DNA from: a bacterium
GTDB taxonomy: Bacteria; UBA8248
Length of the DNA: 64,000 bases
NCBI GenBank assembly: GCA_022825065.1
Contig: JAJDYR010000018.1
Coordinates: 33,606-97,605 of the forward strand
Direction: 5' to 3'
Numbering within the stretch: the first letter of the stretch is position 1; the number at the start of each line of letters is the position of its first letter. The notes below the pieces were generated by a model. The model was not told the origin of the DNA. It saw nothing but the letters and a program-made list of their open reading frames with translations, and ran no database searches. The translations under genes were made by a program, and so were the position numbers. This document shows positions 10,546-33,527 of the stretch, one piece after another.

Positions 10546-10568
10546 TTCTTGTCTCTCATCGAGGAGCG

Positions 10569-11039
10569 TTGTTTATGGAAAAGGCCATGTTCGGCGCAGG
10601 TTGTTTCTGGGGAGTGGAGGCGGCGTTCCGCAAGGTGGAAGGCGTGGCGTACACCGCTGTGGGGTACTCGGGCGGCGCGAAGGACGAGCCCACCTACCGG
10701 GAGGTGTGTACGGGCCGTACGGGGCATGCGGAGGTCGTCTATCTGGAATTCGAACCCGAAAAAGTCTCCTATCAGGAGCTTTTGGAGCTTTTCTGGCGGA
10801 TTCACGACCCGTGCACGCTGAACCGCCAGGGGCCCGACGTGGGCACCCAATACCGCTCGGCGGTTTATTTCTTCTCGCCCGAGCAGGAGGCCGCGGCGCA
10901 GGCGTCCAGGGAGGAGCAGGAGGCGTCAGGGCGTCATTGGGGGCCGATAGTGACCGAGATTACGCAGGCGTCACGATTCTGGATGGGTGAGGACTACCAC
11001 CAGCAGTATGCCGAGAAGAACGGGATTATCTGCCACTAG
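10569..11039 (+). CDS. msrA: Peptide-methionine (S)-S-oxide reductase
   Basis: GAGCFWGVEAAF catalytic motif with Cys, not Sec; typical MsrA length. Confidence 0.9.
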   Translation: MFMEKAMFGAGCFWGVEAAFRKVEGVAYTAVGYSGGAKDEPTYREVCTGRTGHAEVVYLEFEPEKVSYQELLELFWRIHDPCTLNRQGPDVGTQYRSAVYFFSPEQEAAAQASREEQEASGRHWGPIVTEITQASRFWMGEDYHQQYAEKNGIICH

Positions 11040-11099
11040 CCGAATCCGAACGCATCAGCCCCCGGTGGCTCGTAGCCTGCCGGGGGCTTTTTTCCTGTT

Positions 11100-11939
11100 T
11101 TAGCCGTATTGCGCCACGACGCCGGCCAACTCGTCGAGTTTCGGCAGGATGACGTCTTCCTCCGCCGAGGGCAGGTGGAAGAGACTCCTCCCGACGCCCA
11201 GGTCCTCGAATTCGCGCAACTGCTCCAGGTCGGGGGGTGCAAAGAAAATGGTGACCGGAACGGGCGCACGCCCGGCCTTGGCGGCCATATCCTGAAGCTC
11301 CCGGATTCGCGGCGAGAGGACCAGACCCCCGCGCGGCAGCGGCATCCACTCGTCTCCGTAGCGAATCACGCGATCGAGCGTCCTCGCCCCGTTGCCGCCC
11401 ACGAGAATGGGCGGGTGCGGCTTCTGGATCGGCTTGGGCCAGGACCAGATGCGCTCGAAATCCACGAAATCGCCGTGATAGCTCGCCTCATCCTCCGTCC
11501 AGATGGCTTTCATCGCCTCGATGCGCTCGCGAAGGACGATCCAGCGCTTCTCGTAGTTCGTCCCGTGGTTTTCCATCTCCTCGCGGTTCCAGCCGCCGCC
11601 GATCCCGAAAAGCACGCGGCCGTTCGAGATGTGATCGAGCGTGGCCACCTCGTTGGCGAGGGTGATGGGGTCGCGTTCGATGACGAGGCAGATGCCCGTG
11701 CCGAGCATGATTTTTTCCGTCGCGGCCGCCGCGGCCCCTAACGCCACGAAAAGGTCGAGCGAGTGGGAGTATTCCTTAGGCAACTCCGCGCCGCCGGGCC
11801 AGGGGGTTTTCCGGCTCGCCGGAATGTGGGTGTGCTCCGGGAAGAAGATGGACTCGAAGCCCCGGTCTTCCGCCTCCTTGGCGACCCGGTGCGGGGCGAT
11901 GGAGTAATCGGTCGGGAAAATCGCGACGCCGAATTTCAT
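11100..11939 (-). CDS. LLM-class F420-dependent oxidoreductase-like protein
   Basis: 279 aa with the luciferase-like TIM-barrel (MKFGVAIFPTDYSI, GRVLFGIGGGW), resembling the F420-dependent LLM subfamily. Confidence 0.75.
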   Translation of the reverse strand: MKFGVAIFPTDYSIAPHRVAKEAEDRGFESIFFPEHTHIPASRKTPWPGGAELPKEYSHSLDLFVALGAAAAATEKIMLGTGICLVIERDPITLANEVATLDHISNGRVLFGIGGGWNREEMENHGTNYEKRWIVLRERIEAMKAIWTEDEASYHGDFVDFERIWSWPKPIQKPHPPILVGGNGARTLDRVIRYGDEWMPLPRGGLVLSPRIRELQDMAAKAGRAPVPVTIFFAPPDLEQLREFEDLGVGRSLFHLPSAEEDVILPKLDELAGVVAQYG

Positions 11940-11985
11940 GGTCTGCTCTCCTGGTTCGTGGTGATGAATGATTCGCCGATAGTTT

Positions 11986-13320
11986 CTACCTCATGCCCAG
12001 GGGGTTCGGTTTCTGCCCCTCGGGGATGATGGGGTCGTAGGTGAAGCCTCTCGTCTTCTCTTCGAACTCCTCCCGCACCTGCTTCAATACGTTCTCATCG
12101 GTGATGAGTTCCAGCGCGGTAGTCGCCATGGTCTTGGCGGCGGTCATCATGCCTTTTTCTCCGATTTCCATGCCGTATTGCTGGGTGGCCATCCATGAAT
12201 GCCCCGGCGTCCCCGGCGCGTGGCAGGTCGTCATCAGGTTGCCCAGGGGCGTGAGCCAGCTCACGTTGCCGCGCTCGTTGCTCGGGCGGATGTCCGCCGG
12301 GTCGAGGGGCGAGACATCTTCCGAGAGCGGCGTCTCATAACCCAGTTTCCGGGCGAATTCCTTCGCCTCGTCCGAGTAGCTGTGCGCCCCCACGAATTCG
12401 AGGTTCCGCTGCACGCAGTGGGCCAGGGCGCTGTTGGGGAGATTCTCGTACACGGCGGTGAGGAGGGTTTCCTTCATCGTGGTGCCGGACGCCAGCGCGC
12501 CCGCCTTCGCGCAGTTTCGCACGCGCTCGCTCAGTTCGTTCACCATCGCCCGCTTGGGCGCGCGCACGTAGTACCACACGCGCGAGTAGGAGGGCACGAC
12601 GTTGGGCGCCACCCCGCCGTCGGTGATGACGTAGTGGATCTTGACCGGCTCGATGACGTGCTCGCGCATCATGTTCACGCCGTAGTTCATGATCTCCACG
12701 CCGTCGAGCGCGCTCCTGCCGTTCCAGGGGTCGCGGGCCGAGTGGGCGGTCTCGCCATAGAATTCGAAGACGATGGAATCCATCGCGTTCGTGCTGCCGC
12801 CCCGCGTGAAGCTCTTGTCCCCGGGGTGCCAGGTGACGGCGGCGTCGAGGCCGTCGAACGCGCCGTCGCGCGCCATGTACACCTTGCCCTCGAGAGTCTC
12901 CTCCGCCGGGCAGCCGAAGCAGACGACCCGGCCCTTCGTCCCCGATTCGCGCAAGGCGCGCGCCGCGGCGATGGCCGCGTAGGAACTCGCCGTGCCGAAG
13001 AGGTTGTGCCCGCAGCCGTGGCCCTGTTTCTCGTGGGAATCCCCGCAGTGGGGCAGCGCGTCGTATTCGCCCAGAATGCCGACGGCGGGGCCGCTGTCGC
13101 CCCACCTCGCGATGAAGGCGGTGGGGAGATCGCCCACCCCGCGCTGCACCTCGAATCCGTGTTGTTCGAGCACGTCCTCGAGCAGTTCCGCGGACTTGAA
13201 TTCCTCCAGGGCGATTTCCGCGAAGTTCCAGATTTCGCGGGCGATTTCGCGCGCCTCGCCCGCCTGGCCGTCGAGGTAATCGACGGCGTGTCGTTTGAGC
13301 TCGTCCATGTCTTCCTCCAC
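11986..13320 (-). CDS. M20-family amidohydrolase/peptidase (AbgB/amidohydrolase-like)
   Basis: 444 aa with metal-binding motifs of M20D amidohydrolases (HGCGHNLFG, GCPAEE). Confidence 0.8.
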   Translation of the reverse strand: MEEDMDELKRHAVDYLDGQAGEAREIAREIWNFAEIALEEFKSAELLEDVLEQHGFEVQRGVGDLPTAFIARWGDSGPAVGILGEYDALPHCGDSHEKQGHGCGHNLFGTASSYAAIAAARALRESGTKGRVVCFGCPAEETLEGKVYMARDGAFDGLDAAVTWHPGDKSFTRGGSTNAMDSIVFEFYGETAHSARDPWNGRSALDGVEIMNYGVNMMREHVIEPVKIHYVITDGGVAPNVVPSYSRVWYYVRAPKRAMVNELSERVRNCAKAGALASGTTMKETLLTAVYENLPNSALAHCVQRNLEFVGAHSYSDEAKEFARKLGYETPLSEDVSPLDPADIRPSNERGNVSWLTPLGNLMTTCHAPGTPGHSWMATQQYGMEIGEKGMMTAAKTMATTALELITDENVLKQVREEFEEKTRGFTYDPIIPEGQKPNPLGMR

Positions 13321-13539
13321 ATGGTGATGCGGATACGGTTGGATTGGATGGGGCGATTATAGCCCAGGCGGGGTGTTTCGTATACGGCGAGCGGTTGCGG
13401 TGGGGCGGGGCAGGGGGGCCGCCCGGCCCGTGGAAGCCGCGGGCGCAAATGCGGGCAAATGCGGGGAGATGCGCGGGAGGCGAAAAACTTTTTTTGGCCT
13501 GAATCTTAGTGCGGGGCGCTCAGGTTTTTATGATAACTA

Positions 13540-13640
13540 TTTATTTTACAATCGGTTACAAGTGAATAAATTTTCAGAAATTTATCGAAAAACACCGTGA
13601 ATTTATCGAATTTTACCGGAAATATCATTATTTTTATTAC
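13540..13640. repeat. AT-rich conserved ~90-bp module (caatcggtta...gaaatttatcgRaaaac..cgtgaatttatcg...), copy 1; flanked by AAATGCGGG iterons at 13443-13475 and 13905-13930
   Basis: Direct comparison with 61588-61680 shows shared caatcggtta, gaaatttatcg, cgtgaatttatcg and ttattttt blocks. ATGCGGG/TTGCGGG direct repeats lie nearby at both loci. Confidence 0.5.
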
Positions 13641-13967
13641 TGCCGTTATCCTGGAGTCCATGAGCGCGACTCCCCGGCGGGAAAAAGCCCCCCTGAGGAG
13701 GTCAAACGCGAGCGGGGAACGGGTGTCGAACGCGACTGGTGAAGGAGCGATCGAAGATTTTCCGGAAGGGTTCGCCGCCCTCACTCCCGCTCCATCGCCG
13801 CATCCCATGAGAAAGCCTCTTCTTCCTGCGCACCGGTCCGCCGGGGAAAACCCCTTCCCCGCGTCGCGCGCACGATACCGCAGTCCGCTGTTTCGGGAGT
13901 GACGGCAATTGCGGGGAAATGCGGGTTGATTTCGAGAGGGCGGGGTTGTTGAAAAATTTCATCAAAG

Positions 13968-14092
13968 GAGCAACCCCCCCTACCCCCCCTTGTCAGGGGG
14001 GTATAAAAAGGCAATGCGCCCCTGCCGGGCTGAGGGGGTTTTGATTTTTCTTGCCCCCCTGACAAGGGGGGGTAGGGGGGGTTGGTTTTCGA
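13968..14092. repeat. MITE-like inverted-repeat element, copy A
   Basis: Left arm AACCCCCCCTACCCCCCCTTGTCAGGGGGG and right arm CCCCCCTGACAAGGGGGGGTAGGGGGGGTT are reverse complements flanking a ~50-bp spacer (tataaaaaggc..gcgcc..gggctgagggggttttgatttttcttg). Confidence 0.8.
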
Positions 14093-14276
14093 GTCGAGTG
14101 GGGACGACCGTAGCGGACAGCCCCCGCGCCGCATGTGCAAGTTCGATTGCGCACCCCGCGGCGGGGAAGCTATGATGCAGCCGCCATCGCGCGCATCCGC
14201 ACACTCACTGTTTTCCGGAAGCGGTTCGGGGTTTTCCTGAAACAGCCCGCCGGATTGTTGAAATTCCACCTTCTAC

Positions 14277-15197
14277 ATGGAGAAAAAAATGGAAAAAAGA
14301 ACACTCGGACGCACGGGTCTCGAAGTCACTGTCATCGGCTTCGGCGCCATGACCATCGGCGGCGTCTTCGGCCCGGTGGACGACGGCGAGTCCAACCGCG
14401 CCCTGCACGCGGCCATCGATTCGGGCATGAACTTCATCGACACCTCAGACGCCTACGGCGCGGGCCACAGCGAGACCGTCATCGGCAAGTTCCTGAACGA
14501 ACGCGCCGACCGCGGCGACATCCTCATCTTCACCAAGGGCGGGAACGACATGTCGACGGGCGCGCGCAATTTCACGCCCGAGTACATCGCGGGCTGCCTG
14601 GAGGGGAGCCTGAAGCGCCTGGGGATGGACGTCATCGACTACTACCAGCTCCACAACCCCAACGTCGACAACATGGCGGCCGAGGACAGCTACGCGCTGC
14701 TGGAGAAAGCCAAGGACGACGGGAAGATCAAACACTGGGGCGTTTCGATCAACACGGTGGAGGAGTGCAACCTCGCCGCGGAGCAGAACAAGCCCTCCAC
14801 CATGCAGATGGAGTACAACGTCATCAGCCAGGAGGCGGCGCCCGCCTTCGCCCGCGCGAAAGCGGCGGACGTCGGCGTCATCTCCCGCGTGCCGCTCAAG
14901 CGGGGCTTTCTCTCCGGCCGCATCGACGAGGCGTTCGAGTTCGCCGAAGGCGACCGCAGAAAGGGCATCCTCTCGCCCGAGAACATCCGCAAGTTCCAGA
15001 CCCAGCTCGCCCGCACCCGCGAGGTGGCGGAGAATCTCGGAATTTCGGCGGCCCAGGCGGCCATCCGCTTCTGCGTCTCGAACGAGAACGTGAGCTGCGT
15101 GATTCCGGGCATCCGGACGCCCGAGCAATCCCGGCAGAACGCCGAATGCGGCGAATCCCTGCCCGCCGAGGCCGTGAGGAGGCTGCAGGAGGTATAG
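14277..15197 (+). CDS. Aldo/keto reductase
   Basis: 306 aa with AKR signatures (LGRTGLEVTVIGFGAM, IDTSDAYG, IPGIRTPEQ). Confidence 0.85.
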   Translation: MEKKMEKRTLGRTGLEVTVIGFGAMTIGGVFGPVDDGESNRALHAAIDSGMNFIDTSDAYGAGHSETVIGKFLNERADRGDILIFTKGGNDMSTGARNFTPEYIAGCLEGSLKRLGMDVIDYYQLHNPNVDNMAAEDSYALLEKAKDDGKIKHWGVSINTVEECNLAAEQNKPSTMQMEYNVISQEAAPAFARAKAADVGVISRVPLKRGFLSGRIDEAFEFAEGDRRKGILSPENIRKFQTQLARTREVAENLGISAAQAAIRFCVSNENVSCVIPGIRTPEQSRQNAECGESLPAEAVRRLQEV

Positions 15198-15250
15198 GTG
15201 GGGGGGGATGTTGGAAAAGACCGTATGGGGATTCTGCAGGTAGATGGTTT

Positions 15251-15278
15251 GTAGGGACAGGTCGCGACCTGTCCCTAC
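15251..15278. repeat. REP-like perfect 28-bp palindrome GTAGGGACAGGTCGCGACCTGTCCCTAC
   Basis: Self-complementary sequence with a GTAG head. Variants recur at 17154-17180, 19421-19448, 23147-23176 and 23989-24016. Confidence 0.7.
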
Positions 15279-15339
15279 GGGTGAAGGACAACCACGGGGG
15301 TTCGGAGGGAATCACGTTTCACTCGCTCTCCCTCGGCTT

Positions 15340-15532
15340 GAAAACCAACCCCCCCTACCCCCCCTTGACAGGGGGGTATAAAAAGGCGATGTGCCCTCGC
15401 TGGGTTGAGGGGGTTTTGCTTTTTCTCGCCCCCCCAGCACCACCATACTTGAATCATCGCGCCATTTTAGCTGAGGGGGGTTTGATTTTTCTTGCCCCCC
15501 TGTCAAGGGGGGGTAGGGGGGGTTGCCTTTAT
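15340..15532. repeat. MITE-like inverted-repeat element, copy B (with internal partial duplication)
   Basis: Same terminal inverted repeats as copy A, including the gaaaaccaacc left flank and ggttgcctttatc right flank. The spacer contains a duplicated gggttgagggggttttgc segment. Confidence 0.8.
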
Positions 15533-15587
15533 CTCCTGAGGAGGAGGAGTGAATTTCTTCTGCTGAGTCGCGGTTGAGCTTTGCCCT

Positions 15588-15724
15588 TGCTCGTCATTCC
15601 GGCGTATGCCGGAATCCAGGGACTTTGCTTTTGCATTTGTCTTTTCGCTTTATCGTTTTTCTTGGTTATCCTGCGATTCGGTGTTCCCGTCTGCCCTGGA
15701 TTCCGGCATACGCCGGAATGACGG
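15588..15724. repeat. Long inverted repeat (29-bp arms, ~80-nt loop) between the AKR and cupin genes
   Basis: Left arm gtcattccggcgtatgccggaatccaggg (15588-15616) is the exact reverse complement of ccctggattccggcatacgccggaatgac (15696-15724). Each arm is internally palindromic. Confidence 0.6.
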
Positions 15725-15801
15725 CGGTGGTCAATGCCGAGCGAGGAGGGGTTTTCAACAGCCCGTAAGGTGCGATTTTATCGTTCATAAAGGAGACGAA
15801 A

Positions 15802-16203
15802 ATGCCGGTGACGAATTGGGACGAACTGCCCGTGAAGGTGCCGTTCCCGGGGGTGGAAGTGGGCCTCGTGAGCGGGAAGCACTGCATGATCAGCTACATC
15901 CACGCGAAAGGCGGGAACTCCACCCGCAGGCACCACCACGAGGCGGAGCAGATTTTCTGCCTCATCAGCGGCTCCGCCCGCGTGCAGGCGGGCGACGACC
16001 CGGTGGCGGTGCTGAAGCCGGGCGACGTCTGGTACGTGCCGCCGCACACCGAGCACCAGGCGGACTACCTCGAAGACACGGTGGCCTTCGAGGCCGCAGG
16101 CCCCATCCGCCTGGACAATTTCGCGGGCTACCTGCACGAGGACACGCATTTCGTGGATCAAAGAGACCTCGCGGCGGACATGGAGCGGGAACAGGCCGGG
16201 TAG
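15802..16203 (+). CDS. Cupin-domain protein
   Basis: 133 aa with the cupin two-His motif region (HHHEAEQIFCLISG ... PGDVWYVPPHTEH). Last ~10 codons plus the stop (AADMEREQAG*) are shared with the Rieske gene's 3' end. Confidence 0.7.
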   Translation: MPVTNWDELPVKVPFPGVEVGLVSGKHCMISYIHAKGGNSTRRHHHEAEQIFCLISGSARVQAGDDPVAVLKPGDVWYVPPHTEHQADYLEDTVAFEAAGPIRLDNFAGYLHEDTHFVDQRDLAADMEREQAG

Positions 16204-16239
16204 GGGGTAAGTGCTAAACTGGCACGGGAAATAGGTTTT

Positions 16240-16412
16240 GTAGGGGTCAGACATATATGTCTGACTGCGTGTCCGCCCTTTGGGGTCACATATCTTGTCA
16301 TCTCGTAGTATGGCGGAGAGATAAAACCGGGCGGACACGCAGGTCCGCCCCTACGGTTTCGTTTCAATGTGCGCCTTTCTCGTAGGGACAGGCCCCTGTG
16401 CCTGTCCGGGGT
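16240..16412. repeat. Cluster of REP-like palindromic units with GTAGGG heads
   Basis: Units: gtaggggtcagacatatatgtctgac; gggcggacacgcaggtccgcccctac; gtagggacaggcccctgtgcctgtccgggg. Related units occur at 19293-19448, 23058-23176, 23901-24016, 34341-34373 and 40485-40658. Confidence 0.65.
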
Positions 16413-16569
16413 CTGCGACCCCGGACCGTTCTCATGAACGGTCTCTACGGATAACCGCAATTCCTTGTTCATCACTAACGTTTGACCACGCTTGACGAAG
16501 CGCGCGGCGCCTCGCTAGATTCAAGGCGAACGCCAGAGGACCCACTACACTTTGGTGGGAGAAAAACGA

Positions 16570-16992
16570 ATGACGGAATTCGAAACCGCAACCCTCGCAA
16601 TCCAGCAAGCCACCCTCGCGGCGCAGCAGGCCTCCGTTTGGGTCGCCGCTCTCGTCGGGGCCGCGCAGTGCTCCCTGATCGCGTATGGCCTCTACTTCAT
16701 GCGCCAGGCCGCGCGTCACCGGGATGCCCAGCACCGCGAAACCATGGAGGCGATGGATCGCAGTCACCGCGAATCCATGGAGGTGATGGATCGCCGGCAT
16801 CGCGAATCCATGGAGGTGATTGAAGGCCGGCACCGCGAACACATGGAGGGGATTGACAGCCGGCACCGCGAACACATGGCGGCGCTGGCCGTCCAGCGCG
16901 AGGCGGAAAAAGATCGGCACCGCGAATCCATGGCGGCGCTTGCAGACCAGAGCGAGGCGCTCAGGGAACTCATACGGCGCACCTCACAATAG
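16570..16992 (+). CDS. Membrane-anchored protein with tandem 11-residue repeats (HRESMEVMDRR-type), unknown function
   Basis: Hydrophobic segment VWVAALVGAAQCSLIAYGLYFMRQAAR, then at least 6 tandem 11-aa repeats (DAQHRETMEAM / DRSHRESMEVM / DRRHRESMEVI / EGRHREHMEGI / DSRHREHMAAL ...). A paralog with the same architecture sits at 63584-64000. Confidence 0.55.
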   Translation: MTEFETATLAIQQATLAAQQASVWVAALVGAAQCSLIAYGLYFMRQAARHRDAQHRETMEAMDRSHRESMEVMDRRHRESMEVIEGRHREHMEGIDSRHREHMAALAVQREAEKDRHRESMAALADQSEALRELIRRTSQ

Positions 16993-17194
16993 CATTCGCA
17001 CGAGAATCGGACGTTTCACGAGGTAGAGCGGCCATAGAGAGCCGCCCTGCTGCAGGTTCGTTTCGAAACGCGGGAGATGCGCAGCCGGACAGGGCAGGGG
17101 CCGCATTCATGAATCAATCGACGTTGACTCGCCGGTAAGTGAATTTGAATTTGGAGGGACAGATCGCGACCTGTCCCTACCCCTCTCTCGGCTT

Positions 17195-17330
17195 GAAAAC
17201 CAACCCCCCCTACCCCCCCTTGTCAGGGGGGCAAGAAAAAGCAAACCCCTCTCAGCATGGCGGGGACGCATCGCCTTTTTATACCCCCCTGTTAAGGGGG
17301 GGTAGGGGGGGTTGCCTTTATCCCCTGAGG
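17195..17330. repeat. MITE-like inverted-repeat element, copy C (spacer in opposite orientation)
   Basis: Same terminal inverted repeats. The spacer is the reverse complement of copy A's spacer. Confidence 0.8.
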
Positions 17331-17424
17331 ACTCGCTCTTGCCGGGGAGTTGTTCCGCCGGTAGGGTGGTGCGGACGTTCGGGGACGAACGAGGCGGCGA
17401 AGCCTCCCCGCGCGGAATGGAGGG

Positions 17425-19284
17425 ATGATGATGGAACGCAAGCCGGAATCCCGCCGCAAGTTGATAAAGGCGGGCGATTTCATTCGTGTCGGCGCACTGG
17501 ATGAGCTCAAGCGCGAGCGCATGAAAGTGGTGAGCGGCCGGCGCCATCCCATCCTCGTGGTGTATGAGGGGGGCCGCGTTCACGCGCTCGACAACCGCTG
17601 TCCCCATCTCGGCTTCCCGCTCCACCGGGGGTCGGTGGAGAACGGCATCCTCACCTGCCACTGGCATCACGCCCGCTTCGATCTCGAGAGCGGCTGCACC
17701 TTCGATCTGTGGGCCGACGACGTGCCGAGGGCCAGGGTCGAGGTGCGGGGCGATGCGGTCTGGGTCGCGGCCGATTGCAGTTATCCCGACGAGGGCGACT
17801 ACTGGCGCACGCGGCTCGGCGACGCCATGGCGCACGACCTGGACCTGGTGTCCGGGAAGGCGGTGCTCGGCCTGCTCGATCGATCCGTTGCAAGCGCCGA
17901 TATCCTCGCCGACGCCTTCCTGTTCGGCGCGCGGAACCGCGACGACTGGAGCGCCGGTTCCACGATTCTGGCCGCGCTGGCGAACGTGCTGCCGGCCCTC
18001 GATGAGGACGACCGCTATCTCGCGCTGTTCAAGGGCATCTCCGAGGTGGCCGGCGACTGCGCCGGCGAGATGCCGCGCCGCGACCGCAAGCCCCTGGCCG
18101 ATGCCGCGCCGTCGCGGGACACCATGCGGGGCTGGCTCCGGCACTGGTCCCTGGTGCGCCACCGCGACGGCGCGGAGCGCACCGTGCTCACCGCGATCGC
18201 CGCCGGCGCGACGCCCGCGGAACTCGCCGAACTCCTGGTCACCGCACAGACCGATCGCTACTACGCCGATCGCGGCCACAGCCTCGATTTCATCAACAAG
18301 GCGATGGAGTGCCTCGACGCCATCGGCTGGCGGCACGCCGGGGCCATCCTGCCCACGGTGGTCAAGACCATGGTGGCGGCGCGCGGCGAGGAGGAGGCGA
18401 ACGCCTGGCGCCACCCGCTCGATCTGGTGCCCCTCCTGGAGGCGGCCTTCGCCGAATTGCCTGAGCTTTTCAGGAAGGGGGGAGAGGCGAAGGGCGTCTG
18501 GCGGGATCACCGCGCGCTGGCCGGGGCCATCCTCGGCGAGGAGGCCGGGCCCATCATCGCCGCCTTGGGCGCCGCAGTCGCCGCCGGCGCCCGGCCGACG
18601 GACCTCTCCCGCGCGCTCGCCTATGCGGCGGCGATCCGCGTGGCGCGATTCGGCGCCTCGAACGAGTTTTCCGACTGGAACGCGGCGCTTCACGCCTTCA
18701 CCTACGCCAACGCGTTGCATCAGGCTCTGAAGCGCATCACCGCGGCGGGGGAGGCGCCGCCCGAGGCCCAGGCCAACGTGGTGCGCGGCGTGTTCCACGG
18801 CGCCATGGCGGTCTATACGAACCGCTTTCTCAACGTGCCCCCGGCCCGGCTGCCGGAGGAGGAGCCTGCGGCGCTGGCCCGGCTCCCCGGGGACGCGGCG
18901 GCGCTCCGCCAGGGCCTGCTCGATACGATGGACCGCCAGCAGCAGGTCCAGCCGGCGGCGCGGCTGGTCGCCCGGTATTTGGACCAGGGCCACGACCCCG
19001 CAGGCATCATCGCGACGCTCGGCCATGCGCTCCTGCGCGAGGACGCGAGCTTTCACATGTTCCAGATGTACGAGGCGGGCGTGCAGCAGTACCGCGAGTG
19101 GGCGGGTGAGCCCGAAGGCGGCCACATTCTGATCGCCGTGGCCCGCTTTCTCGCCGCGCATTCCCCGACCCAGCGCGCCCGCCACCAGACCGCGACCATC
19201 GCCCGCCGGCTGCATCGCGGGGAGAGCGTGCATGAGGGAGAGGGCGGGGACGCGGCGGACATGGAAAGAGAGCAGGCCGGGTAG
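17425..19284 (+). CDS. Rieske [2Fe-2S] domain protein with large C-terminal all-alpha domain of unknown function
   Basis: CPHLGFPLHRG...(17 aa)...CHWHHARF is the Rieske CxH-x17-CxxH motif. The gene is ~72% GC, clearly higher than its neighbours. The antisense ORF 17107..19380 (-) is judged spurious. Confidence 0.7.
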   Translation: MMMERKPESRRKLIKAGDFIRVGALDELKRERMKVVSGRRHPILVVYEGGRVHALDNRCPHLGFPLHRGSVENGILTCHWHHARFDLESGCTFDLWADDVPRARVEVRGDAVWVAADCSYPDEGDYWRTRLGDAMAHDLDLVSGKAVLGLLDRSVASADILADAFLFGARNRDDWSAGSTILAALANVLPALDEDDRYLALFKGISEVAGDCAGEMPRRDRKPLADAAPSRDTMRGWLRHWSLVRHRDGAERTVLTAIAAGATPAELAELLVTAQTDRYYADRGHSLDFINKAMECLDAIGWRHAGAILPTVVKTMVAARGEEEANAWRHPLDLVPLLEAAFAELPELFRKGGEAKGVWRDHRALAGAILGEEAGPIIAALGAAVAAGARPTDLSRALAYAAAIRVARFGASNEFSDWNAALHAFTYANALHQALKRITAAGEAPPEAQANVVRGVFHGAMAVYTNRFLNVPPARLPEEEPAALARLPGDAAALRQGLLDTMDRQQQVQPAARLVARYLDQGHDPAGIIATLGHALLREDASFHMFQMYEAGVQQYREWAGEPEGGHILIAVARFLAAHSPTQRARHQTATIARRLHRGESVHEGEGGDAADMEREQAG

Positions 19285-19292
19285 GGCAGACC

Positions 19293-19448
19293 GTAGGGAC
19301 AGGCCTCCGTGCCTGTCCGGGGCCGTGTATCCGTGTATTGAATCGATTGCAGAGGGGGACCCATAGGGCAGGGCGGCCACGGAGGGCCGCCCCTACGGGT
19401 TCGTTGTGATTTTGCGGTTTGTAGGGACAGGTCGCGACCTGTCCGGGG
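19293..19448. repeat. Composite REP-like cluster
   Basis: Units: gtagggacaggcctccgtgcctgtccgggg; agggcagggcggccacggagggccgcccctac; gtagggacaggtcgcgacctgtccgggg. Same composite architecture as the clusters flanking hicBA. Confidence 0.65.
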
Positions 19449-19464
19449 TTCGGCGTGTCCGCTG

Positions 19465-19600
19465 GATTGGTCGGAAAACCAACCCCCCCTACCCCCCCTT
19501 GTCAGGGGGGTATAAAAAGGCGATACGCCCCCGCAGGGTTGAGGGGGTTTTGCTTTTTCTTGCCCCCCTGTTAAGGGGGGGTAGGGGGGGTTGGTTTTCA
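19465..19600. repeat. MITE-like inverted-repeat element, copy D
   Basis: Terminal inverted repeats with GAAAACCAACCCCCCC / GGGGGGGTTGGTTTTC extensions. Confidence 0.8.
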
Positions 19601-19942
19601 AGGCGGGGAGGCGAGCGCGTCCGGTCAAGAAAAAAAGGGCCGACACCCCTCGAAGGGCTGCTTTCAGGGGTTGTTGAAAAACCCCCGAGTGTGGGAACTG
19701 CTGCGACACATTCCCCGAGGTGCAGGCCGAGTCGGGGTGTCGGCTGCTTTCATGAAACGCGAACAGGGGCTGCCCGTTGTTCCCGTTCCCGGCTCGAGGA
19801 CTCAAACTCACAGCAAGGAGCGGTACAGTTTGCTCTATCACGAGGGAAGCAACCAACGGGCAACCCCCTTTTCGCTCTTTCCTTCATCTCGCCTTGGACC
19901 CCGGGGCTAGAGCCCCGAGGCCGAAGGCATTCTGCTCTTCTT

Positions 19943-22498
19943 CTATTCCTTCATGTAGCGCGTGCCGAATGCGCCGGCTACTGCGCCATTAGAGAAATTC
20001 GAGTTGAACTCACCCACCAGAACTGGGGGCGGTGCTACACCAGTTCCAACAGCCTCACCATCACCGGAGAATGTCCCCGACCAAGTGGACGTATCAGATG
20101 CCATGCCCTTTGATGTTCCGGTAATGCTGGCAGAACTAAGAACACCAGATGCGGTCGCCATGGTTACTTCCCACTCGTTGGCCTCTCCGCCTGATAGTTC
20201 AAAGTCCGAAATTGTCCCATGCACGGAATTGTGTTTGTCTGCGGCCACGGAAGTCTCTGCCCCGAAATAAGCCGTAAGGGCTACGTCCGCCGTGAACGTT
20301 CCTGCAGACCTGGCATCAAGAGAATTATCTGGATTCACGGTGTTGTAAACGTATACTCCGTGAGCGCCACCTTCATATTTCGCGCTTCCAGCTACAACAC
20401 TTCCTATATTCGTATTAGCGTCAAGACTTGAACCAGCGAAAGTCTGAACGGCATCGTAGGTGGTTTTGCCATCCTTGACGGTTTTCATGAGCCAGAAGCC
20501 ATAGTGCAGGTAATCATCATCCGCTACGGATACCATGGCCCCTGCGTCTGGCTTGAACTGCCATTCGCCCGTAATAGTGGTTATTTTCCCGTCCGCGTCG
20601 GTGACTGCCGTACAAGCGGCATTCACACATTCGAATGTTCCAGCCGCACCATCAAAAGTTCCCCTAAACTCACCTTCATTTCTATTTTCGGTTGTAGTGT
20701 CATCAGCAGGCAAGTTTGTGGTAGTAGTAGGCGCACTTGATATTCTGCTGGAAGCTACCTTGCCCACATCCGCCGTTTCGTCCAATTCATATGTGGTGCG
20801 TTGGTCACCAGTCCTCTCTGGGTCAGCGTCTCCCACCGTAAGAGTATACACAGAACTAAACGGCTCTGATTCAGGCGCCTCAATATCTGTCATGACACTT
20901 ACTATTTCTGAAACTCCTTTTCCGTTATCACGGACATACTTACCGTCCATCATCACGAACTTGGGGTCATTTTTCAGTGGCAAGGCAGGGTCCGTAACTT
21001 CTACCGATACAGAACCACTTTTATGAGAAATCTTCAGGGTATATTGATCGGCGGCATCAGTATCATCGAATGCCGGCGAGGTGGCGTCAGGCGTGGCGGT
21101 TGATTCAGCCGTTATGGCATCCGCTTTAGTCTTGACCATTTCATTCATAGCCTTTTTCGCAGCCGCCGCTTCCTCCATTTCTTCTTCTTCACGCCTCTTT
21201 TCTTCAGCTACTCTATCGGCCTCTTCCTTGGCGGCTACAACCATTCCGGCGAAACGCTCAACCGCAGCTTTTGCGGTCTCGGCTTTAGCCTGGGCGGCTT
21301 CCGCGTCAGCCGATGTAGTGGCGGCCGCGGCTTCATCGTTCGCGGCTTTCGCGTCCGCGACGGCATCTTCCGCCCGCGCGTAAGAGGCTTCGTCAGCAGC
21401 TTTCTGCTCATCCGTGAGGGCCGCAAGCGCCGCCTTCGCGTCCATGTACGCCTGCATGGCGGCCCCCTGCGCGGTCGAGAGCGCGGTCGCTTCCATGTGC
21501 GCGACCGTCACCATGCTAGCGTATTTCCTGGCATCGGCCAGCGCGCTTTCGGCGGCCATCTGGGCGGCTTCCGCATCCGCCGCTGTTTCGGCATTTTCCG
21601 CCCTTACTTTCGCGGCAAGCGCGTCCTCGAGAGCTCTCATGGCTATGTTGTAAGAAACGGAGTCGGCATCGCCTTGGCCCGCGATTGCATCCAGTGCAGC
21701 CTGCGCGGCATTAGCGGCCACTTCCGCGGCACCACGAGCGACTCTTATAGCGGACATTTCGGCCGCCAGATTGTCGGCAGCCGTTTTCGCGTCCGCTACC
21801 ATGTCGGCGTATCTCTGGACATCTGCGAGCGCGGCTTCCACGTCCGCCTGGGCAGCCTTCGCGGCTTCCGATGTGGTTGCCGCGTTCGCCATTGCGAGTG
21901 CTTCTTGAGCGGCCTCGTTCGCGACCTTGGCTCTCACGTATGAGTCGATGTCATGGGCTTTATTCGCCTCTGCGTCCGCCAATAAACTGGCCGCCATATC
22001 GGCCGCAGTCTTTGCGGCTTGCTTGGCGGTATCGAGCGCCATGGCTTCTTGCTGCCGATCCATTTCTGCCTGATCGGCCGCGGTCTTCGCGTCCGCTACC
22101 ATGCCGGCATACTTTTCAGCATCCGCTTGGGCCGCTTCTGCTTTCGCCTGCTCCGCCTTCGCAGCTTCCGATGTGGTTGCGGCTGCGGCCGCGTCACTCG
22201 CGGCTTTCGCGGCCGTGAGAGCGATTCGGGCTGCAGCATATGAGTCTGGATCGACACTCGCATCCGCCATCACGCCATCGACCGCCGTCATGGCAGCCGT
22301 ATACGCCGCCTTGGCGGCATTCTGCGCGGCTTCGAGAGCGGCGGCCTCGGCCGCGATCTCCTCATCCGTCGGGCCGGTCATCGGCGGTTCTGCCGTTCCG
22401 CTACCTCCGCCGCCGCCGCAGCCCGCCAGCGTCAGCGCGAACACGGCCGCCAGCGCGAAAGCGTAGAACTTGTGAATATACTTGTGTTTGAACTTCAT
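19943..22498 (-). CDS. Surface lipoprotein with Ala-rich internally repeated coiled-coil region and TbpB-like C-terminal beta-barrel domain
   Basis: Lipobox LTLAGC after the signal peptide. ~4 internal repeats of ~100 aa (TTSEAAKA..EKYAGMVADAKTAAD), also visible as DNA repeats at ~21700-21850 and ~22020-22160. C-terminal 300 aa is Gly/Ser/Thr-rich and ends ...GEFNSNFSNGAVAGAFGTRYMKE, like TbpB/fHbp-type handle-barrel lipoprotein C-termini. The 3' third of the gene is ~50% GC against ~65% locally. Confidence 0.75.
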   Translation of the reverse strand: MKFKHKYIHKFYAFALAAVFALTLAGCGGGGGSGTAEPPMTGPTDEEIAAEAAALEAAQNAAKAAYTAAMTAVDGVMADASVDPDSYAAARIALTAAKAASDAAAAATTSEAAKAEQAKAEAAQADAEKYAGMVADAKTAADQAEMDRQQEAMALDTAKQAAKTAADMAASLLADAEANKAHDIDSYVRAKVANEAAQEALAMANAATTSEAAKAAQADVEAALADVQRYADMVADAKTAADNLAAEMSAIRVARGAAEVAANAAQAALDAIAGQGDADSVSYNIAMRALEDALAAKVRAENAETAADAEAAQMAAESALADARKYASMVTVAHMEATALSTAQGAAMQAYMDAKAALAALTDEQKAADEASYARAEDAVADAKAANDEAAAATTSADAEAAQAKAETAKAAVERFAGMVVAAKEEADRVAEEKRREEEEMEEAAAAKKAMNEMVKTKADAITAESTATPDATSPAFDDTDAADQYTLKISHKSGSVSVEVTDPALPLKNDPKFVMMDGKYVRDNGKGVSEIVSVMTDIEAPESEPFSSVYTLTVGDADPERTGDQRTTYELDETADVGKVASSRISSAPTTTTNLPADDTTTENRNEGEFRGTFDGAAGTFECVNAACTAVTDADGKITTITGEWQFKPDAGAMVSVADDDYLHYGFWLMKTVKDGKTTYDAVQTFAGSSLDANTNIGSVVAGSAKYEGGAHGVYVYNTVNPDNSLDARSAGTFTADVALTAYFGAETSVAADKHNSVHGTISDFELSGGEANEWEVTMATASGVLSSASITGTSKGMASDTSTWSGTFSGDGEAVGTGVAPPPVLVGEFNSNFSNGAVAGAFGTRYMKE

Positions 22499-23040
22499 TT
22501 AGTGAGTCCTCCTGAATACATAGAAAAAGGGATTTTCAGTGAATTTCCGGCTTTCTCCGATTAACCTCCTTTCCTTCTCGATATACGGGCCTTCACAAAC
22601 TGGTCATTCGTATTTCGGGCCGCCCGGAGGACGGCGGACTTGCGGCCTCATCGTCCGGGCTGGTATGAACTCTTTCCGCGACACACGAATTCCTGAGGTA
22701 TGCGCGCACCTTTCTTTGGTCTCCTAAGGCGAGCGGTCTGCCCGCCGCTAATTGTCGTTACGGGACGCCGGAAGCCCCGTTCTCCGCCGGGAGAGCCGTT
22801 CCGGGGCGCGCGCGGGCCGCGAATGAGCGAAAAAAGACGGAAAACGGCGCCCGAAAACTCCTCCCGGGACCCCGGAATTGCGCTTGACATGGTTTTGAGA
22901 GGTGTTATATTGTCTGATAACGACAATTATCGGATATCAAGAAGCCATTTCGGTCATAACCGGCCGCCGCCGTCATGCCTGCGTCGGACATAGATGCGGA
23001 TGACGGCCCTTCATGTATCGCTGAACCCCGGCATGACGAT

Positions 23041-23200
23041 TGAAAGCCGCAGCCGCCGTAGGGGCCGTTCGTGAACGGCCCTTGTCGGAGAAGCGGGCGG
23101 TTCGCGAACCGCCCCTACGGGTTCGTTGCGATTTGCGTGGTTGTTGTAGGGACAGGCCTCCGTGCCTGTCCGGGGTCGCGACCTGTCCGAGGCCCCCGCG
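23041..23200. repeat. Composite REP-like cluster (left direct repeat flanking hicBA)
   Basis: gtaggggccgttcgtgaacggcccttgtcggagaagcgggcggttcgcgaaccgcccctacgggttcgttgcgatttgcgtggttgttgtagggacaggcctccgtgcctgtccgggg. Near-identical composite recurs at 23885-24030 in the same orientation. Confidence 0.7.
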
Positions 23201-23389
23201 CCTGTTCTTGCGATTCCGCAACCGCAGATGGCCGTCATTGTGATACACTCTGCCGCAGACGTGGATCGGCGGCTCCTGAATGATCGTCGTGTAGAGCCGC
23301 CGTATAAGTTCGGACGAACGCTTGAGGGCCGGGCCCTGGAGGTGAAGATTGCTGAATTTGCCCGATGTCGAGCGTAGGGAGGGGAACCC

Positions 23390-23593
23390 GTGAAACTCAA
23401 GGTAGTCGTTCACGAGGCGGAAGAAGGTGGATATTGGGCCGAGGTCCCGGCTGTTCCAGGGTGTGCGACGCAGGGAGATACGTTCGAGGAGTTGTTGAGC
23501 AATCTCTACGAGGCGGTCGAAGGGTGCCTCTCCGTGGACGTCCAGGAGGTGGACGTTTCGGGCGCGGGCAGGGTCGTCGAGATCGCCGTGTGA
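23390..23593 (+). CDS. hicB: Type II toxin-antitoxin system HicB-family antitoxin (UPF0150-like)
   Basis: MKLKVVVHEAEEGGYWAEVPAVPGCATQGDTFEELLSNLYEAVEGCL matches the HicB N-terminal RNase H-like domain pattern (V.EPEEGGY.V..P.LPGC.TQGDT.EEAL.N..EAIE). Confidence 0.8.
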   Translation: MKLKVVVHEAEEGGYWAEVPAVPGCATQGDTFEELLSNLYEAVEGCLSVDVQEVDVSGAGRVVEIAV

Positions 23594-23796
23594 AAATCGT
23601 CAGTGGAAAGCGCTTTTGCCGCATACTGGAAGCGAAGGGCTGGAAACTGGCGCGCACCCGCGGCAGTCACCGCATTTACGCGAAACGGGGTTCGGACATC
23701 CGCATCTCGGTGCCGGTGCATGGCGAAGCGTCGCTCAAACGCGGCTTGCAGAGGCATCTCATGAAGCTGGCGGATATCAAGGATTCCGAACTGTAG
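23590..23796 (+). CDS. hicA: Type II toxin-antitoxin system HicA-family mRNA interferase toxin
   Basis: GTG start overlaps the hicB stop (GTGA). VKIVSGKRFCRILEAKGWKLARTRGSHRIYAKRGSDIRISVPVHGEASLKRGLQRHLMKLADI matches the HicA/YcfA consensus (G.E..K.L...GW.L.R..GSH....). It is the C-terminal part of track ORF 23365..23796. Confidence 0.8.
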   Translation: MKIVSGKRFCRILEAKGWKLARTRGSHRIYAKRGSDIRISVPVHGEASLKRGLQRHLMKLADIKDSEL

Positions 23797-23884
23797 GCCA
23801 GGAGCAAGGACGACGCAATATATCCACCCTTATCGGCCCTGGCCAACCTGTTGGTTGTCACCGACATTCACCGGAATGACGAAC

Positions 23885-24030
23885 AAACGTCGCAGCCACC
23901 GTAGGGGCGGTTCGCGAACCGCCCTTGCCGGAGAAACGGGCGCTTCACGAAGCGCCCCTACGGGTTCGTTGCGATTTGCGTGGTTTCTGTAGGGACAGGT
24001 CGCGACCTGTCCAGGGTCTCTGCGCCTGTC
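23885..24030. repeat. Composite REP-like cluster (right direct repeat flanking hicBA)
   Basis: gtaggggcggttcgcgaaccgcccttgccggagaaacgggcgcttcacgaagcgcccctacgggttcgttgcgatttgcgtggtttctgtagggacaggtcgcgacctgtccaggg. Confidence 0.7.
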
Positions 24031-24044
24031 GAAGGGGACGCCCG

Positions 24045-24215
24045 AAAACCAACCCCCCCTACCCCCCCTTGTCAGGGGGGTATGAAAAAGCGACACCCCA
24101 GCGAAGGGAAAAAGCGACACCCCGGCGAAGGGGGAAAAGAAAAGAAGGTCCCCCCGACAGGGGGGAGCAAAAAAAGACCCCCCTGACAAGGGGGGGTAGG
24201 GGGGGTTGCCTTTAT
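24045..24215. repeat. MITE-like inverted-repeat element, copy E (1.5-copy variant)
   Basis: Left arm, then a spacer with an extra half-arm (ccccccgacaggggggagcaaaaaaagacccccctgacaagggggggtagggggggttgcctttatc). Confidence 0.8.
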
Positions 24216-24247
24216 CCCTTGTTAAGGGCGGCCACGGAGGGCCGCCC

Positions 24248-25501
24248 CTACGCCTCCGGCGCGGTCGCCGCCTCCACTTCGGCCGGATGAATCTCGGCGA
24301 AGGAATGATCCCTGGTCCGCCCGTCCGCTTCGAAATCGATGATCTCGGTCTCGCCGATGACCCTGTCGATCATCTCCCGGACGGGCAGGCGCGATTCCAG
24401 CCCGCGCAGGTGGCCCGCGTGGGAGCGGATGGCGGGGTGCTTGGGGACGAACAGCGAGCAGCAGTCCTGGTCGGGCTCGATGGAAATCTCGAACGTGCCG
24501 AGCGCTTTCGCCCCCTCGATAATCTCGTCCTTGTCCATGCCGATCAGGGGCCTCAGGATCGGCATCCGCACCGCGTCCTCGATGGTGGCCAGGTTCTGGA
24601 GCGTCTGGCTCGCGACCTGTCCCAGGCTCTCGCCGGTGACGAGGGCGCGGGCGTTCTCGAACCCGGCGATTCGCTCCCCGATGCGCGTCATGAACCGGCG
24701 GTAGAGGACGACGCGGTACTCGGGCTGCGTGGCGAGGACGATCTCTTTCTGCAGGTTGCCGAACGGCACCATGTAGAGCCTGCTCCCCAGCTGGTAGCCG
24801 TTCAGAACGCCGGCCAGGTCCTTCGCCTTCTCGGCGGACGCGCGGCTGAGATAAGGCGCGCCGTGAAAGTGGATGAACACCACCTCGCAGCCGCGCTTCA
24901 TGACCCGCCAGGCGGCCAGGGGGGAGTCGATGCCGCCGGAGAGAAGCGCCGCCGCCTTTCCGAGCGAGCCTGTGGGCAGGCCGCCGGGGCCGGGGATTTT
25001 CTCGGCGTACACCCAGGCCTCTTTGGGGATCACTTCCACGTGCACCGTGAGCCCCGGGCGATCCAGGTCGACGGGCAGGTGTCTTCTGGCCTGGATCGCG
25101 GCGCCGATGGCCCTGTCCCACTCCCGCGTGCTGACGGGCGTGGCCGGGAAGGATTTCCGGGTCCGGACGCGGAAGCTTTTGGTTTTAAGAGGAGCGATCA
25201 TTTCGAGCGCCGTTTGCGCCGCCGATTCGATATCGAGCGGAACGCTTCGCGCCCGGGCGAAATAGGCGACCCCGAATACTTTCCCGAGGGCCTCGATGAG
25301 AGCGCCGGGATTTTTCAGGCCGCTCGCTTCCAGAATCAGCCTTCCCGTGCGTTTCCTGACTTTGGCTTCACAGAATAAAGAGGCCGCGCGCTCGATCCGC
25401 TTCGAAAGGCGCTCGATGAAGAGCGGACGGTTCTTCCCCTTGAGGCCGATCTCGTCGTAATGGATGAGGATCGAGACGTCTTTCGGCTCACCGGAATTCA
25501 C
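24248..25501 (-). CDS. thiI: tRNA 4-thiouridine(8) synthase
   Basis: THUMP domain plus PP-loop ATPase (SGGIDSPLAAW); typical ThiI length. Confidence 0.9.
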   Translation of the reverse strand: MNSGEPKDVSILIHYDEIGLKGKNRPLFIERLSKRIERAASLFCEAKVRKRTGRLILEASGLKNPGALIEALGKVFGVAYFARARSVPLDIESAAQTALEMIAPLKTKSFRVRTRKSFPATPVSTREWDRAIGAAIQARRHLPVDLDRPGLTVHVEVIPKEAWVYAEKIPGPGGLPTGSLGKAAALLSGGIDSPLAAWRVMKRGCEVVFIHFHGAPYLSRASAEKAKDLAGVLNGYQLGSRLYMVPFGNLQKEIVLATQPEYRVVLYRRFMTRIGERIAGFENARALVTGESLGQVASQTLQNLATIEDAVRMPILRPLIGMDKDEIIEGAKALGTFEISIEPDQDCCSLFVPKHPAIRSHAGHLRGLESRLPVREMIDRVIGETEIIDFEADGRTRDHSFAEIHPAEVEAATAPEA

Positions 25502-33482: not shown

Positions 33483-33527
33483 GCGGGTTTCTCCCCTTCG
33501 GGGTTGTTGGAAAAGTCTCCCTTGTCT

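Follow-up and report, generated by a model that had tools for sequence, protein, structure and literature searches.

At the 'minimal mobile elements' of Neisseria, hotspots of horizontal gene transfer (HGT) and recombination lie between core genes, and small repeats known as Correia elements, which are miniature inverted-repeat transposable elements (MITEs), are common at such sites. A second kind of small repeat, the repetitive extragenic palindromic (REP) elements of Proteobacteria, which include BIMEs and REPINs, consists of a GTAG(GG) head with a G+C-rich imperfect palindrome, lies outside genes and often occurs as inverted doublets. Chromosomal hotspots of HGT and recombination were reportedly also the subject of work by Oliveira and colleagues in 2017. 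Here we describe a repeat-rich locus of comparable layout in a bacterium of the UBA8248 lineage (assembly GCA_022825065.1, contig JAJDYR010000018.1): a segment of about 11 kb (10.9 kb) between the gene for an M20-family amidohydrolase (11986-13320, - strand) and thiI (24248-25501, - strand), analysed within a window of 64,000 nucleotides (contig positions 33,606 to 97,605; all coordinates are those of the window) with a G+C content (GC) of ~61%.

Seven genes lie in the segment, encoding an aldo/keto reductase (AKR), a cupin, a protein with one transmembrane segment and tandem repeats (TM-repeat protein), a Rieske protein, a lipoprotein, HicB and HicA (Table 1). We consider it quite likely that this segment is a chromosomal recombination hotspot that works without an integrase, and not a self-mobile island. 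Its flanks are conserved and syntenic, non-homologous cargo occupies the same site in different genomes, and no self-mobility gene is present among the region genes scanned. The hotspot adds one more case to a well-known class of genome features. An earlier reading of the sequence alone had proposed an accessory-island-like segment that behaves as a hotspot for insertion and recombination. Synteny comparison across thiI and the M20 gene supports the hotspot, as relatives share neither gene content nor order; the segment is not one island, since AKR and cupin are core genes and the variability is found in separate slots.

To compare the locus with its relatives we used open reading frames (ORFs) at 23 thiI-anchored loci, DNA at 29 loci, and the gene tables of ten contigs encoding an identical 133-aa cupin (L081-L090). 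An exact-sequence look-up gave no match for the ThiI and Rieske proteins of the window, while the cupin protein did match. Close relatives of ThiI (76-95% identity) were found solely in metagenome-assembled genomes (MAGs), several of them labelled Nitrospinota or Nitrospinaceae with bin names of a sponge-metagenome type and others Mb-scale chromosomes; PMC10839748 mentions sponge-derived Nitrospinota MAGs. The host is an uncultured sponge symbiont, and its close relatives' records are labelled Nitrospinota.

Beyond thiI, the stretch at 25.5-36 kb is colinear in L001-L018; thiI and M20, each with the genes on its outer side, keep their order in L001-L018 and L081-L090. The interval between these flanks ranges from 1.6 kb (L013, L016) to more than 10 kb. 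The two shortest loci read thiI/cupin/AKR/M20, with cupin ~20 bp from thiI, and the same order is seen in the Tectomicrobia-labelled outgroup L020; AKR and cupin, being kept in the compact relatives and in L020, are thus core genes. The main seat of variable DNA is the slot between cupin and thiI, which measures ~20 bp in compact relatives. Between AKR and cupin, compact relatives have a spacer of 66-81 bp; L085 carries an IS256-type transposase there, and L083 and L090 an ORF of 135 aa. A further slot, between M20 and AKR, is filled in L004 by a 4.7-kb insert with an IS1595 transposase, and in L081 and L086 by a 5.5-kb block in which a collagen-repeat gene and one other gene accompany genes for three lipoproteins of ~490 aa.

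The slots differ in content or order in at least ten ways, even among genomes with an identical cupin protein. The window reads cupin/TM-repeat/Rieske/lipoprotein/hicBA, an order shared up to the lipoprotein by L087 and L088, whose contigs end at that gene. Rieske precedes TM-repeat in L002 and L083 (cupin/Rieske/TM-repeat/lipoprotein) and in L010 (cupin/Rieske/TM-repeat/hicBA), and shorter arrays are present in L019 (cupin/Rieske), L004 (cupin/TM-repeat), L018 (cupin/hicB(A)) and L005/L084 (cupin followed by a divergent lipoprotein). In L008, L081 and L086 cupin and Rieske are followed, after other sequence, by genes for a B12-binding protein, an AMP-binding ligase, MeaB and methylmalonyl-CoA mutase, and in L003/L085 the order is IS256-type element/cupin/hicB/Rieske/lipoprotein/IS4/5-type element. 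Across loci, the cargo thus spans Rieske, TM-repeat, lipoprotein alleles, hicBA or hicB alone, a methylmalonyl-CoA-mutase operon, three types of insertion sequence (IS), and extra lipoproteins with the collagen-repeat protein.

The Rieske gene is missing from L004, L005, L013-L018 and L084, and it is this patchy presence, not composition, that marks it as accessory. Its product is one of a very large group of uncharacterised ~600-aa proteins; more than 7,700 homologues were found, and outside the lineage the best are ~61-63% identical, the named ones being proteobacterial. The TM-repeat protein, built on an 11-residue unit (HRESMEVMDRR-like, tandem at 16732-16950), matched nothing in Pfam, NCBIfam or PADLOC; the number of repeat copies appears to vary between strains, the protein being 146 aa long in the window, 154 aa in L081, 162 aa in L083 and 169 aa in L087. 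The hicB and hicA genes overlap by 4 nt and score above Pfam thresholds (HicA_toxin 55.9 bits, UPF0150 30.3, HicB_lk_antitox 29.4). The module adjoins thiI in L010, L011 and L018, hicB stands alone between cupin and Rieske in L003 and L085, and L083 has neither gene.

Cassette borders coincide with REP clusters and MITEs. Blocks of DNA homology with relatives end in the repeat-bearing spacers, at 17324 (just after MITE copy 3), 19259 (just before a REP cluster), 19563 and 23189/23190, and the Rieske homology block in relatives begins at 17324, directly after MITE copy 3. TM-repeat stands before Rieske in the window and L087 and after it in L002, L081 and L083, and homologous REP clusters (16329-16413 and 19293-19397) sit at the junctions of this order swap.

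Besides this one, two other junctions are informative. The hicBA module is flanked by direct copies of a REP cluster (23028-23156 and 23871-23999, 87% identical), and L083, without hicBA, has a single hybrid cluster whose left part corresponds to copy 1 and whose right part corresponds to copy 2. This hybrid is what recombination between the REP copies would be expected to produce, or else the substrate on which the reverse event would have acted. At the second junction, the last 11 codons of the Rieske gene (19252-19284, AADMEREQAG*) copy the last 33 nt of the cupin gene (16171-16203) with four differences, all synonymous, and the REP that follows this tail in the window is a copy of the REP following cupin in L083. 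The Rieske tail differs in L003, L008, L010, L011, L081 and L085 (...DAADPDALSDSAAK), which is probably its original form; the point of switching is the shared AAD codons, GCGGCGGAC. Since the duplicated cupin tail (in L083 together with the REP after it) brackets the Rieske cassette, it has the appearance of a footprint left by a single-crossover or microhomology-mediated insertion. As a separate observation, the GTAG of a REP serves as the Rieske stop codon in L002, L083 and L087, where the frame reads four codons further (…QGRP*), and that of the REP at 24226-24251 supplies the thiI stop codon in the window.

The lipoprotein gene varies within itself as well as in its presence. Its product begins with a lipobox, LTLAGC (MKFKHKYIHKFYAFALAAVFALTLAGCGGGGG), whose Cys is kept in at least 90% of 38 aligned homologues, and has an Ala-rich stalk of four repeats of ~100 aa and a C-terminal head that, by fold, is a handle plus 8-stranded beta-barrel of the TbpB/fHbp/hemophilin type. 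The Pfam family TbpB_B_D (PF01298) gave no match at E <= 0.1 for the window allele and five other alleles or homologues, and when PDB sequences were searched with the profile of the family, the only matches were to signal peptides. Identity among the alleles beside thiI is 29-78%, whereas among the flanking ThiI proteins it is 89-95%. Compared with the window allele, that of L083 is 85-92% identical in the head and 55-64% in the stalk, and that of L002 is 95% identical in the signal peptide and 42-51% in the head. Third-position GC (GC3) of the head at this same locus falls into two ranges, 0.45-0.50 and 0.71-0.74, depending on the allele, and reaches 0.88 in a homologue from a Gammaproteobacteria-labelled MAG, a spread that fits import from different sources.

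Around this variable core, the ends of the gene are conserved across alleles: the 3' end on one side, and on the other the 5' end with ~0.5 kb of upstream DNA, which travels with every lipoprotein allele at 76-93% DNA identity (22357/22404 to 22943-23189; L001, L002, L003, L005, L082-L085) while the gene centre diverges. Conserved ends with a mosaic middle form the layout that allele replacement by recombination would be expected to leave, and mosaic alleles at a fixed locus are the pattern that would be expected of a surface molecule under diversifying pressure. The conserved upstream DNA also holds a promoter-like site on the + strand (22884-22911), which matches a near-consensus sigma-70-type promoter at 11/12 positions (TTGACA, 16 nt, TG, TATATT) and points away from the lipoprotein gene; the 169 nt downstream of it fold only marginally better than shuffled sequences (z = -1.8).

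Homologues of the C-terminal 412 residues, at up to 60% identity, are present in MAGs labelled Nitrospinae, Nitrospira, Caldilineaceae, Rhodospirillales, Deltaproteobacteria and Gammaproteobacteria; how far this speaks for a spread across phyla is limited by the MAG binning of short contigs. All have a lipobox, and several have sponge-metagenome bin or locus-tag labels. By tblastn with a Slam protein we found no Slam gene in the window and 92 fetched loci; a large-database search for Slam returned many DUF560 proteins, including some from MAGs with sponge-type labels, none of them tied to this lineage. Elsewhere, homologue P0106, from a Gammaproteobacteria-labelled MAG, lies ~5 kb from a SlipAM gene. 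The surroundings of head homologues in such MAGs look mobile: in the Gammaproteobacteria-labelled L091 the homologue is near SlipAM/DUF560 together with HicA, YhaV and PIN toxin genes, and in the Deltaproteobacteria-labelled L093 it adjoins a phage-type integrase and a DDE transposase. TbpB-like lipoproteins recur as cargo in both slots: the three ~490-aa lipoproteins between M20 and AKR (L081 1761-8004, L086 64-6379) are tandem paralogues with sub-threshold TbpB_B_D scores of 21-25 bits (cut-off 26), and adjoin the collagen triple-helix repeat protein and a weak PRTase-like protein. We rejected the idea that they belong to the family of the window lipoprotein, as profile comparison aligned the lipobox alone and the two are separate families.

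These data bear on an alternative in which an ancestor carried the full array and the shorter intervals arose by deletion, making the segment a decay zone and not an insertion hotspot. The hicBA difference looks exactly like a deletion between direct REP clusters, hicA is missing beside hicB in L003 and L085, and a cupin fragment remains in L011, all of which differential loss would explain. We nevertheless regard it as unlikely, because the most distant relatives and outgroups are compact (L013-L017, the Tectomicrobia-labelled L020, and L021/L022), the cargo differs in kind (the methylmalonyl-CoA-mutase operon, IS elements, unrelated lipoprotein alleles and the collagen-repeat block), the GC3 of the lipoprotein head differs at one and the same locus, and the Rieske gene bears an insertion scar derived from the cupin tail.

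The repeats that mark the cassette borders fall into two kinds. The window holds nine complete MITEs, with both ends present (C7TAC6-7 ... G6-7TAG7), five of them in the segment as the sequence-only reading had counted (Table 1) and four outside it (33533-33678, 34412-34536, 37001-37187 and 40276-40423). They are non-coding, measure 125-190 bp, are bounded by near-perfect terminal inverted repeats, 35 nt or longer, of the type GAAAACCAA-C7TAC7-TTGTCA-G6, and fall into two subfamilies in both orientations. Copy 7 (34412-34536) is filled in the window and empty, with matching flanks, in L001, so that the element has been mobile recently; no clean target-site duplication could be read at this single empty site. 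Copy 7 lies in a second, smaller variable spacer on the otherwise conserved side (33483-34690), which also contains a small ORF (33964-34317) matched in L001 and partly in L005 and not in other loci, and into which L005 has an extra low-GC insert of ~1 kb.

A REP here consists of a GTAGGG head followed by a G+C-rich hairpin. The segment contains 16 of them in seven clusters (15251; 16240-16407; 17157; 19293-19444; 23058-23171; 23901-24012; 24226), where at least six had been suggested, and about six more lie outside it, at 33818 and ~40063-40633 only, with none in 1-15 kb or 41-64 kb. All of the ~22 REPs are extragenic save for overlaps of a few bases with gene ends, as at the thiI stop codon, and some form inverted doublets 37-53 nt apart (23058/23095, 23901/23938, 40485/40532). 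Among relatives, both kinds of repeat are lacking from 21 kb of the more distant compact loci L012-L014, L016 and L017, and all that L015 shows is one MITE end plus three REPs; in close relatives the repeats cluster on the hotspot side, where L002 has 17 REPs compared with a single one on its conserved side.

MITE ends score as terminator-like on both strands, with 29 sites in the segment compared with 12.0 +/- 3.5 in shuffled sequences (for example 15483-15533, 17204-17240, 19554-19599 and 24149-24197), and such sites also hold G7TAG7, which fits a G-quadruplex motif. MITEs may insulate cassettes transcriptionally. In L003, an IS4/5-type transposase element (11360-12960) sits inside a MITE, whose end is truncated at CCCCCCCTACCCC, and its inverted ends (…CCCCTTGAAGGGCCTGTTGAAAAACCCC) represent another small-repeat family that is also scattered in related loci; we rejected this element as the parent of the MITEs, since it interrupts one and has different ends.

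Single-gene cassettes, each followed by an imperfect palindrome and arranged in a strain-variable order, also recall an integron, with MITE or REP hairpins serving as attC-type sites for a recombinase encoded elsewhere. The attC R''/R' consensus is RYYYAAC / GTTRRRY, and the element ends (GAAAACCAAC..., ...GTTGGTTTTC), judged by eye, do not fit it. Moreover, cassettes occur in both orientations with core genes interspersed, the same MITEs lie between core genes at 33-40 kb, and no integrase was found in the region genes scanned or among the called genes of L081-L090, which makes an integron-like array very improbable.

The composition of the segment is less heterogeneous than the sequence-only reading had proposed. 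The GC values that it gave are close to those measured, ~72% against 70.9% for the Rieske gene (73.1% in the 18-19 kb window) and ~50% against 50.8% for the last 412 codons of the lipoprotein gene. The Rieske GC3 of 0.89, however, is like that of its neighbours (M20 0.89, AKR 0.91, cupin 0.90, thiI 0.86); the excess lies in codon positions 1 and 2 and so reflects amino-acid composition, and we rejected a foreign origin of the Rieske gene on the grounds of high GC. Both hicBA (GC3 0.74) and the TM-repeat gene (0.755) fall within the background of 0.78 +/- 0.10, whereas the lipoprotein gene stands at 0.57 overall and 0.47 in its C-terminal 412 codons. The lipoprotein head is the sole compositionally foreign part of the segment. 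The hicBA, cupin and TM-repeat genes named in that reading are indeed present, by domain or ORF, and the AKR gene (14277-15197), which it did not mention, stands beside them.

What sets the segment apart is its large non-coding share, not repeat density as such. Spacers between its genes are all long (348-956 bp), and 40% of it is non-coding compared with 12% of the remaining window. It had been contrasted with 41-61 kb as compact, repeat-free housekeeping sequence; at 41-57 kb there is indeed no MITE or REP, and the functions encoded are ordinary ones such as a class-V aminotransferase (cysteine-desulfurase type), a hexapeptide/serine acetyltransferase, exonuclease VII, polyprenyl synthase and DXP synthase. 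The mixed composition, the toxin-antitoxin module and the strain-variable presence of genes would also suit the gain, in one piece, of an integrative genomic island of the classical type, now whole or a remnant. We give this hardly any credence: tRNA and Rfam scans of the entire window found nothing, no integrase or recombinase domain was detected in the region genes scanned with Pfam and NCBIfam and none matched PADLOC, no direct repeats bounding the whole segment were found, two core genes lie inside it, its parts vary independently between genomes, and one gene only is compositionally foreign. A defence island is likewise without support, as NCBIfam and PADLOC give no family for the lipoprotein, the TM-repeat protein, hicB or hicA. 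That unrelated contigs were joined at repeats during assembly or binning is scarcely credible, even though short-read assembly could go astray among so many REPs and nine near-identical MITEs and the L087 and L088 contigs break off at the lipoprotein gene, because each junction is spanned by at least one independent assembly, several being Mb-scale chromosomes (L087/L088 10.0-19.5 kb; L083 19.56-21.7 and 22.36-23.19 kb; L010 and L011 23.09/23.19-23.9 kb; L001 24.05 kb into thiI), and because the independently assembled L087 and L088 are colinear with window 10000-19524 in one block at 96.1%, so that the window arrangement is not an assembly artefact.

Combining these results, we chart a model for a recombination hotspot at this locus. 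The core genes M20, AKR, cupin and thiI would delimit a few permissive intergenic slots, the main one being the junction of the convergent cupin and thiI 3' ends and the second the divergent M20/AKR promoter region. A convergent 3'-3' junction would tolerate insertions because no promoter is disrupted. Within these slots, in a lineage rich in repeats, cassettes of a single gene or operon would be inserted, lost, replaced and reordered, with exchange proceeding through homologous recombination in the conserved flanks and in dispersed REP and MITE sequences, along with joins at microhomology and, occasionally, the insertion of an IS. MITE ends, which resemble bidirectional terminators, may insulate the cassettes. 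The lipoprotein gene would itself be an allele-replacement locus, its stalk and head a mosaic of which part was imported from a lower-GC source.

Several points weigh against this model. The segment is enriched for repeats when scaled by length (binomial p = 0.01 for 5/9 MITEs and 3e-4 for 7/10 REP clusters), but scaled by non-coding bases the enrichment is not significant (p = 0.29 for MITEs and 0.06 for REP clusters). The repeats track non-coding space and do not mark the segment specifically; they may merely pile up wherever non-coding DNA is tolerated, and with the enrichment gone per non-coding base, the case for a causal role in recombination comes from two or three junctions only. Within the 64 kb we identified no REP-associated transposase (RAYT), no parent transposase of the MITEs and no uptake or transfer machinery. 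The direction of events is a matter of inference: L083 could have lost hicBA by deletion, rather than the window having gained it, and some compact loci could be secondarily reduced. The relatives, finally, are mostly MAGs of different species (ThiI 76-95% identical) and not one population.

Table 1. Features of the variable segment and its flanks (window coordinates).
Feature	Position	Strand	Remarks
M20-family amidohydrolase	11986..13320	-	core, left flank; Pfam Peptidase_M20 and M20_dimer, NCBIfam TIGR01891; 92-98% aa identity, syntenic in relatives
Variable slot 1, divergent M20/AKR intergenic	13321..14276		MITE copy 1 (~13965-14090)
Aldo/keto reductase (AKR)	14277..15197	+	core; Pfam Aldo_ket_red E = 1e-59; near thiI/cupin in all relatives including L020-L022
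AKR-cupin spacer	15198..15801		palindromic REP 15251-15278; MITE copy 2 (15340-15533)
Cupin_2 protein, 133 aa	15802..16203	+	core; Pfam Cupin_2; identical protein on 21 contigs read
REP cluster	16240..16413		left edge of main variable slot; homologous to clusters 19293-19397 and 23109-23178
TM-repeat protein, 146 aa	16552..16992	+	accessory; one TM; six 33-nt tandem repeats
REP and MITE copy 3	17157..17322		REP 17157-17180; MITE 17195-17322, inverted relative to copies 1 and 4
Rieske protein, 619 aa	17425..19284	+	accessory; Pfam Rieske, N-terminal [2Fe-2S] domain; uncharacterised C-terminal ~500 aa
REP cluster and MITE copy 4	19293..19599		REPs 19293-19444; MITE 19474-19599; relatives' homology blocks break here
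Lipoprotein, 851 aa	19943..22498	-	accessory, hypervariable; lipobox LTLAGC, Ala-rich stalk, low-GC C-terminal head
Conserved non-coding DNA, ~0.5 kb	22499..23027		upstream of lipoprotein gene
REP cluster	23028..23178		copy 1 of direct repeat bracketing hicBA
hicB	23390..23593	+	type II toxin-antitoxin; GTG start
hicA	23590..23796	+	type II toxin-antitoxin; GTG start
REP cluster	23871..24012		copy 2 of direct repeat bracketing hicBA
MITE copy 5 and REP	24044..24251		MITE 24044-24216, subfamily B; REP 24226-24251; same MITE after thiI in L001, 94% identity
thiI	24248..25501	-	core, right flank, convergent with cupin; Pfam ThiI, ThiI_fer, THUMP; 76-95% identity L001-L019

Two further features of the window were noted. 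Upstream of M20 (13577-13636), an AT-rich direct-repeat motif, GAAATTTATCG ... TGAATTTATCG, with a spacing of 21 nt, matches one at 61601-61639 upstream of the gene at 61691; the pair may be a shared operator, and GAAATTTATCG as an 11-mer alone is no commoner than chance. A tandem duplication with a period of ~1.47 kb covers 174-4695 (399-698/1870-2169, 90% identical; 1660-1815/3130-3285, 87%) and yields two or three paralogous genes. Relatives have, by their gene tables, a gene of CoA-transferase family III to the left of this block, and the duplicated genes may be its paralogues.

The locus provides a concrete, well-bounded example of accessory-gene variation in an uncultured sponge symbiont without phage or integrase. 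Variation makes use of dispersed repeats and of a small number of intergenic slots that permit insertion, and a molecular scar of the event is kept at two junctions. Of greatest interest is the hypervariable TbpB-fold lipoprotein, found in a lineage not labelled as proteobacterial. Should the diversifying pressure hold true, the thiI-cupin interval would be a tractable marker locus for strain typing, and the lipoprotein a candidate symbiosis or phage-receptor factor. More speculatively, and as a possibility we hold doubtful, this could be a site of cassette exchange where TbpB-fold lipoproteins are shared and diversified among symbionts of different phyla that live together in sponges, that is, cargo of the Slam/type 11 secretion system (T11SS) kind outside Proteobacteria, with roles in host interaction or phage evasion and with REPs and MITEs as portable joints and terminators.

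Set against the systems introduced at the outset, the locus resembles Neisseria-type hotspots in its fixed conserved flanking genes, its unrelated cargo from strain to strain, its lack of self-mobility genes and an exchange explained by homologous recombination in the flanks. It differs from them in being split into slots by core genes, in the permutation of cassettes within a slot and in its setting in an uncultured sponge symbiont. The REPs of the window share with proteobacterial REPs the GTAG(GG) head, an imperfect palindrome of 20-26 nt, the extragenic location and the inverted doublets, but they occur in a genome whose close relatives are labelled Nitrospinota, and several stem variants share one GTAGGG head. 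Like Correia elements, the MITEs are short and non-coding, with near-perfect terminal inverted repeats, two subfamilies, both orientations, filled/empty polymorphism and terminator-like ends; unlike them, they end in C7TAC7 / G7TAG7 runs and a C6-N6-G6 hairpin. The hicBA module, with its HicA and HicB domains, small overlapping genes and accessory mobile context, is like other HicAB modules, and departs from HicAB elsewhere in its order, hicB then hicA, and in being bracketed by duplicated REP clusters instead of borne by a plasmid or prophage. The lipoprotein, finally, compares with the surface lipoproteins and hemophores that depend on Slam/T11SS (TbpB, LbpB, fHbp, NHBA, HpuA and hemophilin), which are described as proteobacterial in PMC5449769, PMC8406197 and bioRxiv 10.1101/2024.09.26.615229, and is set apart from that cargo by its long Ala-rich repeat stalk, an extra beta domain, the absence of a TbpB_B_D match and a host whose relatives are labelled Nitrospinota.

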